DNA of 64,000 nt from Escherichia coli O157:H7 (GTDB taxonomy: Bacteria > Pseudomonadota > Gammaproteobacteria > Enterobacterales > Enterobacteriaceae), in assembly GCF_013167455.1 (NCBI RefSeq), contig NZ_CP038328.1; one strand, written 5' to 3'. The position numbers were made by a program. The first letter of the stretch is position 1, and every line of letters begins with the position of its first letter. Positions 51,001-54,000 of the stretch are shown piece after piece.

Positions 51001-54000
51001 CCCCCCATGCAGCAACGCTTGCCAGCCTAACTCCTGCGACATTGGCAAGCTTTGTTTTGCTGCCAAAAAACGCTATAGCATCAATTTTCAACATATCGAA
51101 ACCCTTAGATTTTCCTAAGGAAACTAGATCGTAGAGAAACCTAAGTCAAGAAAAATTAGAATTACCTAATATGAAAAACGAAACCTTCGGTGCTCGCCTC
51201 TTATACAGGCGAAAAAAATTAAAACTGTCTCAGGCCGCATTAGGTAAGCTGGTCAAAGTGGCTCACGTAACAATTTCTCAATGGGAAAGAGATGAAACAC
51301 AGCCAGCGGGGAAGAGATTATTCGCACTGAGCCAGGCGCTTCAGTGCTCGCCGACTTGGCTTCTTTTTGGAGATGAAGATAAGCAACCAGGCGAACCGAT
51401 CCCAGATAATCAGCCAGTCAATCTGACAGAAGATCAAAAAGAGTTGCTTCAACTGTTCGACGCACTGCCTGAGTCAGAGCAAAAGGCTCTGTTGTCAGAG
51501 ATGCGTGCTCGAGTTGAGAATTTCAACAAACTTTTTGAAGAACTACTCAAAGCTCGCAAAAGAAGCGCAAATAAATAACCCCCCTTTTTTTCGCAACTCT
51601 CTGTAATAAAAAGCACAAACTTTCAAATACTTGTGTTTTTTACATCAAGAAGCTTAGGTTTTTCTACACAAAAAGCTTGACCATAACTCTTAGGCTATTC
51701 TAAATTCCACTCATCAAGACACCGCACGGTGTTCTCAGCAAACAGTTCCGCTACCCGGCGTTAAGGGGAAGCAGAGGATTTCTCAGTGGGCGAGTCAAAC
51801 ATCAGAATGGAAGGCGTCCAGGGATCAGCAAAGAAACAGCGATGGCGCTTTATATTGATATCAGCGCCATTGCCGGACAGGTAAGAGTTATCAGAGCGGT
51901 AACTAAGCGGTATGCGCCTTTACTTCAGAAAGTCTCTGGTGAGTGCACCGAAGATATTGTCAACGATTTCGTCATCGAACTGCGAGGACTCATCTTCAGT
52001 TACAAGGTGACCACAATTTTTGCAGATGGCTCCCGCGAAACTGTCAGAGCCCTGCGGCTTAAAGGATGTGTCAAAGACTTAGCCACCACATTCTGGGCAA
52101 GAAAACTTGATTGTATTCATAACCAATTTCCTCTCGAGTAACAGACCCCTCAGAGGATACCACCTCGCCTGACGTGGTTAAAAAGCAGGCAACGCTAACC
52201 ACAAGGAGCCGACATGCAGAAACGAGACCCCGTCATCATCGCGCCAGACTATACCGATGATGAACTTTATGAGTGGATGCACCAGAAAATTAAGGCGGTG
52301 CAGGACCTGAAATGGGCCAATGAAGCCAGGGCTAAGCAGGCTGAAAATCTGTCCGCTCTGGAGCAGGATATCACCAATCTGGAAAAAGCAGCGGCATTAA
52401 GCATTGCCAGAATGATTACATACCCACGTTAATAGCTAACCAACGAGGCTAATAATGGAATTTAAAGATTTACCAACGCCATTACAGGAAATGGCATCGA
52501 ATATAGTTCGTTCACAACTGGCTACTCTTGACCTTAGTACCGCAGAAAAAGAAACCATCGATAATATGGTTCGTAATGTGCGCAATGCTTTTTCTGGGCT
52601 ATATGGTTCTGATAATCAAAAGCAGGAAAGCGATGTTAATAAACGGGTAATTTCTGTTTGCGTGAATGGCCATGTTCTTTCATCAATCAAAACAGAAACG
52701 GCGACAGTCTTCGATTGCCTTTGCATTGTACAGAGCCTTGTTGATGCCCTGTTTCGTTCAGTGAATTTAGAAAATGATGCAAATCTGCGAGGGCGCATAA
52801 TAGCACATCCATATGCACATACTTTAGGCTCTGTGGATATCAAAGATCCCACAAATCTTTAATGAAATAGTTAACGCGAATTGTACTTGCTCTTTCGGTT
52901 GCTTTCAGAATACGCGTTGAAACTGCTGGCGGTAATTTGGTATTCCATTTATTAAAATCATGCCCGGGAAAGTACTCTTCGAAAATACTTTTAACTGCAG
53001 ACTCGCCTATTGAAATGCTGCTTACCATGCGATTTTGATAAAGGCATTTAGCAATAAGAGTTGATTTTAACATTCACCCTCCTGAGGGTTGGTAATTAAG
53101 GAGTTCTCCACGGGTGAAGTGGAGTGCGTGCGCCGGACACGGGTGAACATCCGGCACTGACAGTTTACTGAAAGGATATTTCTCTGAAAAGTCAGAGCAT
53201 AACGCGAAAGCGCACGGCGAGGTTGCTGGTTCATAGATAGCCTGTCGTTAAATTTTCGTCGACCGTGCGCTTCCGGTTGTGGCACTCCGCGAAATGGCGC
53301 AGCGGTAAGTATGGCGGGGTTATTCCTTCCCCGTTGAGGACACCGGGTTGTCAGGTTGACCATACGCTTAAGTGACAACCCCGCTGCAACGCCCTCTGTT
53401 ATCAATTTTCTGGTGACGTTTGGCGGCATCTGTTTGCCCATGAACTGATGTCCGCCCTTTTTAAAGTGAATTTTGTGATGCAGTGAATGCGGCTAAGCGC
53501 ACGCGGAACAGTTAAAGCTAAAAACAGTGTTATGGGTGGATTCTCTGTATCCGGCGTTAATTGTTAACTGGTTAACGTCACCTGGAGGCACCAGGCACCG
53601 CATCACAAAATTCATTGTTGAGGACGCGATAATGGAAACGTTATTACCAAACGTTAATACGTCTGAAGGTTGTTTTGAAATTGGTGTCACTATCAGTAAC
53701 CCTGTATTTACTGAAGATGCCATTAACAAGAGAAAACACGAACGGGAGTTATTAAATAAAATATGCATTCTTTCAATGCTGGCCCGTTTACGTCCGATAC
53801 AAAAAGGATGCTGGCAATGAATACAGCATTTGCACTTGTTCTGACAGTTTTTCTTGTTTCCGGAGAGCCAGTTGATATTGCAGTCAGTGTTCACAGGACA
53901 ATGCAGGAGTGTGTGACTGCAGCAACCGAACAGAAAATTCCCGGTAACTGTTACCCTGTCGATAAAGTTATTCACCAGGATAATAACGAAATCCCGGCAG

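Follow-up and report, generated by a model that had tools for sequence, protein, structure and literature searches.

How far does the reach of the repressor encoded in a prophage immunity region of Escherichia coli O157:H7 extend: to its divergently transcribed cro-like neighbour alone, or also to the gene cluster that follows the repressor gene in the same direction? The region lies within a stretch of 64 kb, hereafter the window. An earlier note on this DNA had pointed to an operator motif, CTTAG-N6-CTAAG, on both sides of the repressor gene and had proposed that the downstream copies form an OL-like second operator, placing the downstream genes under direct repressor control. Here, we describe the sites, their positions relative to the promoters and their variation among homologous immunity regions. 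The locus very probably serves as the immunity switch of a lambdoid prophage of the Qin/DicA type, integrated at ompW, in which a DicA-like repressor would act on operators at both sides of its own gene.

Over the window, identity is 100% to a chromosome record of E. coli O157:H7 and 99.7–99.8% to phage records named PPompW and to records of Stx2a-converting phages that contain a PPompW; the phage records at 99.8% identity label the repressor and cro genes dicA and dicC. The repressor gene (51171–51578, plus strand) encodes a 135-residue protein with a Pfam HTH_3 match (E = 4e-14), which aligns over its full length with K-12 DicA at 62% identity, its C-terminal half matching the DicA C-terminus. 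A phmmer search against the PDB relates residues 2–69 to the N-terminal DNA-binding domain of the P22 C2 repressor (entries 1ADR and 2R1J, E about 1e-21), and this homology spans the whole N-terminal five-helix domain. Pfam assigns only HTH-type families to the protein and no Peptidase_S24 (LexA/S24 autocleavage) domain. At 135 residues and lacking S24, the repressor would be CI-like in its action at operators, yet it lies outside the lambda CI/LexA-like family that is cleavable in the SOS response. The divergent cro-like gene (50867–51094, minus strand, 75 residues) matches P22_Cro in Pfam (E = 3e-13) and YdaS only weakly. In the identical O157:H7 record, RefSeq labels its product a Cro/CI family regulator, and by alignment this product is close to K-12 DicC. 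Beyond it lie a YdaT-family gene, also identified with Pfam, and then replication genes.

On the other side of the repressor gene, the RefSeq annotation of the identical record and synteny with Qin define a dicBF-type operon (51842–54100, plus strand), which consists of a gene for a 99-residue hypothetical protein, ydfC, a further hypothetical gene, the DicF sRNA, dicB and a DUF1482 gene, with an exonuclease gene starting at 54101. The DicF match (53408–53457) scores 43.5 bits in Rfam (E = 1.8e-7), under the gathering score of 48; the same search of 50800–54200 gave otherwise only a weak STnc100 match and placed the conserved leader described below in no Rfam family. The gene order is that of the Qin (Kim) prophage of K-12, dicC-dicA-ydfABC-dicF-dicB-ydfD, in the same orientation, and Qin likewise has a 135-residue repressor without a cleavage domain and a closely similar cro-like gene. 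There are also differences between the two prophages. The first operon genes of Qin, ydfA/ydfB, are replaced in the window by the 99-residue hypothetical protein, and the window prophage, unlike Qin, sits at ompW in O157:H7. Prophages of this type at ompW have been reported to be defective (PMC8112680).

Five matches to CTTAG-N6-CTAAG fall within 600 bp, three of them in the gap between dicC and dicA and two past the repressor stop codon. The inverted repeat that the earlier note had placed in the intergenic region is indeed there and is perfect: the core CTTAGATTTTCCTAAG occupies 51104–51119 and extends to an 18-bp palindrome, CCTTAGATTTTCCTAAGG (51103–51120), which is the sole match without mismatches in the 64 kb. 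This site, operator 1, holds the position of Oc in K-12 (TTGTTAGTCATAACTAACAA), is conserved among the loci assigned below to class A, and lies just downstream of the −10 element of the dicC-side promoter. Read on the minus strand, the order is TTGACT, 17 bp, TAGTTT, the perfect palindrome CCTTAGGAAAATCTAAGG and the dicC ATG. The putative dicC promoter (51121–51149, minus strand; −35 at 51149–51144 and −10 at 51126–51121) was read from the sequence, and its layout agrees with TTGACT-N17-TATCTT of K-12. Its −10 is weak (3/6), and it scores too low for the consensus promoter scanner to report. The AGTCAA of its −35 is invariant across all of the immunity classes, and this is why the stretch CCTAAGTCAAG appears conserved even between heteroimmune relatives.

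Operator 2, equivalent to Om, is a one-mismatch match, CgTAGagaaacCTAAG (51130–51145), which overlaps the −35 and the spacer of the dicC promoter. The CCTAAG at 51140–51145, previously taken for an extra half-site, is present as claimed; it is the right half of this full site rather than a half-site standing by itself. The reverse complement of operator 2, CTTAGGTTTCTCTACG, is near-identical to the distal site downstream of the repressor gene. Operator 3, equivalent to Oa, has two mismatches (aTTAGaattacCTAAt, 51155–51170). It adjoins the start codon of the repressor gene and overlaps a hexamer, TAGAAT (51157–51162), that lies 8 bp before this ATG and is a candidate −10 element of dicA; the stretch is almost unchanged in the class B loci L003, L006 and L009. 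This inferred promoter suggests a leaderless dicA mRNA, like that of lambda cI transcribed from PRM. The three operators start at 51104, 51130 and 51155, i.e. at spacings of 26 and 25 bp, and a palindromic operator beside dicC, accompanied by two weaker sites within the gap between the divergent genes, is also the arrangement of Qin, where three sites occupy this region and the perfect palindrome is the one next to dicC.

Downstream of dicA, a 12-bp stem followed by UUUUUU forms a terminator-like hairpin (51607–51642, plus strand; MFE −10.3 kcal/mol, z = −2.96), and in the other classes different hairpin-like inverted repeats with a T-run occur at the equivalent place. The consensus scanner called no dicA terminator; this element and the dicC-side promoter were assigned from K-12 homology and folding. 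The scanner did call a promoter here, TTGACC-N18-TAAATT (51677–51706, plus strand), with a weak −10 of 4/6 (51701–51706) and a predicted start at about 51713. It is homologous to the K-12 sequence TTGACC...TAATCT upstream of ydfA and is the equivalent of dicBp, the promoter of the dicB operon. A leader block common to all classes (catcaagacaccgcacggtgttctcagcaaacagttccgc) starts at this predicted +1; as a whole, the leader is not unusually stable (folding z = 0.12).

The CTTAGG elements that had been noticed past the repressor stop begin at 51653 and 51689 and belong to two imperfect sites, each with one good half-site. The distal operator, CTTAGGTTTTTCTACA (51653–51668, two mismatches), ends 8 bp short of the −35; the proximal operator, CTTAGGCTATTCTAAA (51689–51704, one mismatch), begins 6 bp downstream of TTGACC (51677–51682) and overlaps the spacer and the −10. 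The pair thus lies 75–126 bp past the stop codon at 51578, somewhat closer than the 80–140 bp first given, and it flanks the TTGACC hexamer rather than overlapping it as had been described. No third operator was found at a spacing of about 25 bp beyond the distal or the proximal site; the literature implies three operators at Qin dicBp, and two are recognised at the O157:H7 locus. A further match with two mismatches, at 51892, lies inside the first open reading frame of the operon and was taken as chance. In Qin, two sites likewise bracket a TTGACC −35 downstream of dicA, followed by the conserved leader and then by dicF and dicB, the proximal site lying 5 bp from the −35 as against 6 bp in the window. 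Sequence and comparison together place a second operator set at the promoter just downstream of dicA, which heads the dicF/dicB operon. All of the defining features of the DicA/DicC (Qin-type) immunity family that can be tested in sequence are present at the locus, and on these it belongs to that family.

It could be asked whether the downstream CTTAGG elements are anything other than chance or generic A+T-rich promoter sequence, in which case only the intergenic palindrome would be real and control of the cluster would be indirect. We scanned the whole 64 kb for CTTAG-N6-CTAAG with up to two mismatches. The degenerate pattern is not enriched across the window (ten matches against 16 expected), which favours a chance origin, as does the single good half-site in each downstream site. 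The distribution of the matches is a different matter. Five of the ten fall in 51104–51704, and the matches with at most one mismatch number three in the 64 kb, all three at the immunity locus. The two intergenic regions together measure 339 bp, and the Poisson probability of five matches in that length is about 3e-8. With the motif taken from the upstream palindrome, and so defined independently, the downstream region by itself gives a probability of 0.002 at the window-wide shuffle rate and a modest 0.008 from local shuffles, the latter again leaving some room for chance. The hexamer CTTAGG is rarer in the window than expected (nine copies against 18.6), and four of the nine copies are at the immunity locus. 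It is the clustering and the low-mismatch matches, and not the total count, that carry the signal.

A further test, proposed in the earlier note, compares homologous immunity regions. DicA-like loci were taken from three sources, namely genomes of E. coli, phages in GenBank (among them one of Klebsiella and one of Stenotrophomonas) and IMG/VR. The 240 loci obtained comprise 169 distinct combinations of the two regulatory regions and fall into four classes. Class A (49 distinct loci), to which the window and Klebsiella phage ST405-OXA48phi1.2 belong, combines the helix-2 sequence xSQ(A/S)AL with the operator CTTAG-N6-CTAAG. Class B (62 loci, Qin among them) combines xTQR with GTTAG-N6-CTAAC; class C (56 loci) has xSQN, the recognition helix VSGSSISLWE and TTGAG-N4-CTCAA; and class D (two loci) has xTQK and ATTAG-N6-CTAAT. 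The regions of every class were scanned with the pattern of every class at up to one mismatch; the patterns were specified explicitly, since automatic selection of the best palindrome went wrong in some loci owing to ties. In the dicC–dicA region, own-pattern matches per locus number 1.82 in class A, 1.97 in class B, 1.00 in class C and 2.0 in class D, and the corresponding values downstream of dicA are 0.96, 1.61, 0.91 and 2.0. Among classes A, B and C there are no cross-class matches at this threshold in either intergenic region; the class D pattern does cross-match at one mismatch, because the outer base alone distinguishes it from those of A and B. The motif is conserved in related immunity regions, as the earlier proposal requires, with a class-by-class matrix that is diagonal at both intergenic regions.

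The geometry around the downstream promoter is conserved as well. The order distal site, 8 bp, −35, 5–6 bp, proximal site occurs in 37 of the 49 loci of class A, 38 of the 62 of class B and 51 of the 56 of class C; most of the remaining loci in these three classes show near variants of it. Considered singly, the proximal site is 5–6 bp from the −35 in 158 of the 169 distinct loci, and the distal site lies 8 bp upstream of it in most loci of classes A, B and C. In the proximal operator, it is the left half-site that is class-specific. Comparison of the class A loci shows conserved half-sites and a conserved −35 that is followed, before the proximal site, by 6 bp of freely varying sequence; the distal site is conserved between variable flanks. 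The four operator classes shift in step at both intergenic regions and with the repressor helix-turn-helix. Because the members of a class are close relatives, this comparison carries the weight of about four independent switches and not of 169 observations; each class switch appears at two separate places in the DNA and in the protein. That the downstream half-sites switch together with the upstream palindrome and the repressor HTH, at a fixed distance from the −35, argues against chance. The sites, their clustering, the promoter geometry, the conservation and the co-variation with the repressor are all observed in these sequences.

Work on K-12 Qin bears on the same question. Operators have been described in both the dicA–dicC and the dicA–dicBp regions, and dicBp is repressed by DicA: deletion of dicA derepresses it 22-fold, whereas deletion of dicC does not (PMC10448788). 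ChIP-seq of DicC in Qin gave peaks on either side of dicA (bioRxiv 10.1101/2024.09.21.614188). In vivo, DicA binds the Oc palindrome, and a single A-to-C substitution abolishes the binding; the mapped dicC start site places Oc over the dicC −10; binding of DicA at the dicC–dicA operators also activates dicA (Yun 2012; PMC3441716). The imperfect sites Om and Oa, tested alone in vivo, did not bind DicA (PMC3441716), a result that could be taken in favour of chance at the downstream sites, which are also imperfect. Weighed against the repression of dicBp, the ChIP peaks and the co-variation described above, the reading in which the downstream elements are chance or generic promoter sequence is very improbable. 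Class co-variation, fixed promoter geometry, Qin synteny and the K-12 literature all favour the proposal that an OL-like second operator would place the downstream cluster under direct repressor control.

We propose that a repressor dimer would recognise the 16–18-bp inverted repeat (C)CTTAG-N6-CTAAG(G). Bound at the perfect operator 1 and at operator 2, which together cover the start region, the spacer and the −35, it would shut the dicC promoter, with operator 3 as the putative dicA-side site. At the two downstream sites it would occlude the promoter of the dicB operon, 100 bp downstream of the dicA stop: the proximal site lies over the spacer and the −10, and a repressor bound there should exclude RNA polymerase. 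The dicBF-type early operon, which comprises ydfC, the DicF sRNA, the DicB division inhibitor and recombination genes, would thereby be kept silent by the logic of lambda OL/PL, and the Cro-like DicC probably works through the same sites. DNA binding and repression by the 135-residue protein are inferred, as are the points at which transcription starts and any cooperativity.

Another possibility is that the downstream sites are mainly DicC sites or auxiliary sites, and that they serve chiefly for long-range looping to the dicC–dicA operators, about 550–585 bp away, which would reinforce the switch in the manner of lambda OL–OR looping, rather than for simple occlusion of the downstream promoter. 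The ChIP-seq experiment that located sites on both sides of dicA was performed with DicC, not with DicA (bioRxiv 10.1101/2024.09.21.614188). The downstream sites are weak, and the lack of DicA binding at isolated imperfect sites of K-12 (PMC3441716) fits cooperative or looped binding; the C-terminal helical region of DicA, which is conserved in the alignment, could mediate oligomerisation. Nevertheless, the proximal site falls exactly on the spacer and the −10 in most loci, which is a signature of occlusion, and the outer discriminating base of the operator tracks a residue in helix 2 of DicA while the HTH of DicC hardly differs between class A and locus L003 of class B. On balance, we regard a predominant role for DicC or for looping as unlikely. 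Promoter occlusion and looping are compatible and not mutually exclusive. Since Om and Oa of K-12 do not bind alone and each downstream site has one good half-site, occupancy of the downstream sites may need cooperative or looped binding to the palindrome.

The proposed circuit resembles that of the classical lambdoid phages. As in OR/OL of lambda (PR, PRM and PL) and in the c2/cro region of P22, the repressor and cro genes of the window diverge from a tripartite operator whose sites overlap −35 and −10 elements, and a second operator set lies at an early-left promoter downstream of the repressor gene, with the same direction of transcription. In P22 the operator measures 18 bp (ATTTAAG-N4-CTTAAAT) and shares the register of the window operators, with TTA at positions 3–5. 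Nevertheless, there are clear differences between the window and these phages. The first is in the repressor, which lacks the S24 peptidase domain and hence RecA-mediated cleavage. The second is in the downstream region, where the window has two sites, the OL-like set follows 75 bp after the repressor stop and no rex or sie genes intervene. Furthermore, no N/nut antitermination module was identified in the window. Induction of Qin has been attributed to the antirepressor Rem and not to RecA (PMC10448788). The RacR/YdaS/YdaT region of the Rac prophage, for which multiple repressor sites in the intergenic region have been reported (PMC11879457), is comparable in that its HTH repressor gene, too, diverges from a Cro-like gene, after which comes a gene of the YdaT family; unlike in Rac, the Cro-like gene of the window is a P22_Cro with a weak YdaS match, and RacR is a different repressor.

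The window also differs from Qin in the operator sequence and in its apparent counterpart in the protein. The window has CTTAG-N6-CTAAG where Qin has GTTAG-N6-CTAAC, and helix 2 of the repressor reads LSQAALG where that of Qin reads HTQRSLA. Across the classes, the outer base of the xTTAG half-site (C, G or A) tracks the residue after the invariant glutamine with which helix 2 starts (Ala/Ser, Arg or Lys), and the recognition helix is identical between class A and class B loci such as L003, the Cro-like protein nearly so. Two linked readings are possible, and we suggest them tentatively: a natural, minimal specificity code of one residue and one base would separate the classes, and the weak downstream sites would be filled only through DicA looping to the palindrome. 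The CTTAG operator specificity and the correlation of outer base with helix-2 residue appear to be undescribed in the literature searched, outside which lie the primary papers of 1986 and 1988. The OL-like second operator itself was already described for Qin, and only the operator sequence of the CTTAG immunity type is new. The regulatory principle reportedly goes back to work on Qin in 1988.

The analysis assigns an operator sequence and a putative direct regulon, namely the promoters of dicC, dicA and the dicBF-type operon, to one repressor type. Its practical value is modest and consists of four putatively orthogonal repressor/operator pairs and a testable rule for their specificity. The repressor type also occurs in related pathogenic E. 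coli and in Klebsiella phages. Products of the operons concerned are the DicF sRNA and the division inhibitor DicB, and derepression of these operons affects cell division and, per a cited report, virulence regulation in EHEC. If the one-residue code is true, it could let several prophages that carry dicBF coexist in one genome without cross-repression.

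The outermost base of the operator correlates with a single position of the repressor across the DicA-like loci examined (L002–L250, drawn from E. coli genomes, GenBank phages and IMG/VR). The position comes directly after the invariant Gln that opens HTH helix 2, within residues 19–25 of the repressor (gene at 51171–51578 of the window). Where the outer base is C (CTTAG), the residue is Ala or Ser; G (GTTAG) is accompanied by Arg, and A (ATTAG) by Lys. Class A (CTTAG-N6-CTAAG, as in the window) and class B loci (GTTAG-N6-CTAAC, as in K-12) such as L003 share an identical recognition helix, VAHVTISQWE. 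Judging from these sequences, the pairing of the helix 2 residue with the outer operator base may constitute a one-residue, one-base specificity switch.

The repressor-proximal third of the dicC–dicA divergent region, acctaagtcaagaaaaattagaattacctaa (51138–51170), is near-identical to the stretch directly preceding the dicA start codon in the class B loci L003, L006 and L009, whereas the cro-proximal palindrome is unlike theirs, and this difference between the two parts suggests a recombination junction within the operator region. The window and L003 also differ by one residue in the DicC HTH.

On the plus strand, a TAGAAT hexamer lies 8 bp upstream of the repressor ATG, and no Shine–Dalgarno sequence is visible in this interval (51157–51171); together, these features suggest that the repressor mRNA is leaderless, as is that of lambda cI. 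The other classes have equivalent hexamers equally far from the ATG (TAGCAT in K-12 and TAAGAT in class C, whose operator is TTGAG-N4-CTCAA). Downstream of the repressor gene, a plus-strand hairpin at 51607–51642 (z = −2.96), with an A-tract, a 12 bp stem and a U-tract, looks like a bidirectional intrinsic terminator; it was not called by a consensus scanner owing to the few G–C pairs in its stem.

A block of ~60 nt, catcaagacaccgcacggtgttctcagcaaacagttccgctacccggcgttaagggga (51713–51775), begins where transcription from the dicB-operon promoter is predicted to start; it is conserved in E. coli loci belonging to immunity classes A, B and C (L002–L006 and IMG/VR loci). It contains a small hairpin, ACACC-GCAC-GGTGT; its overall folding stability is ordinary and an Rfam search of 50800–54200 gave no match in the block. 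This leader could act as a processing, antitermination or translational element. Further along the plus strand, and upstream of dicB, are a match to the DicF sRNA (53408–53457; 43.5 bits, E = 1.8e-7, under the gathering score of 48) and, overlapping it, a weak match to STnc100 (53446–53651; 32.5 bits).

Among the IMG/VR loci, prophages that differ in operator class can share a genome, A with C or C with B. Co-resident loci were found in genomes 2703718784 (L044 and L115), 2724679239 (L095 and L203) and 2869924733 (L052 and L053); in one of these genomes both copies are class A and their regulatory regions are identical. The co-residence of prophages with different operator classes is as heteroimmunity would predict.
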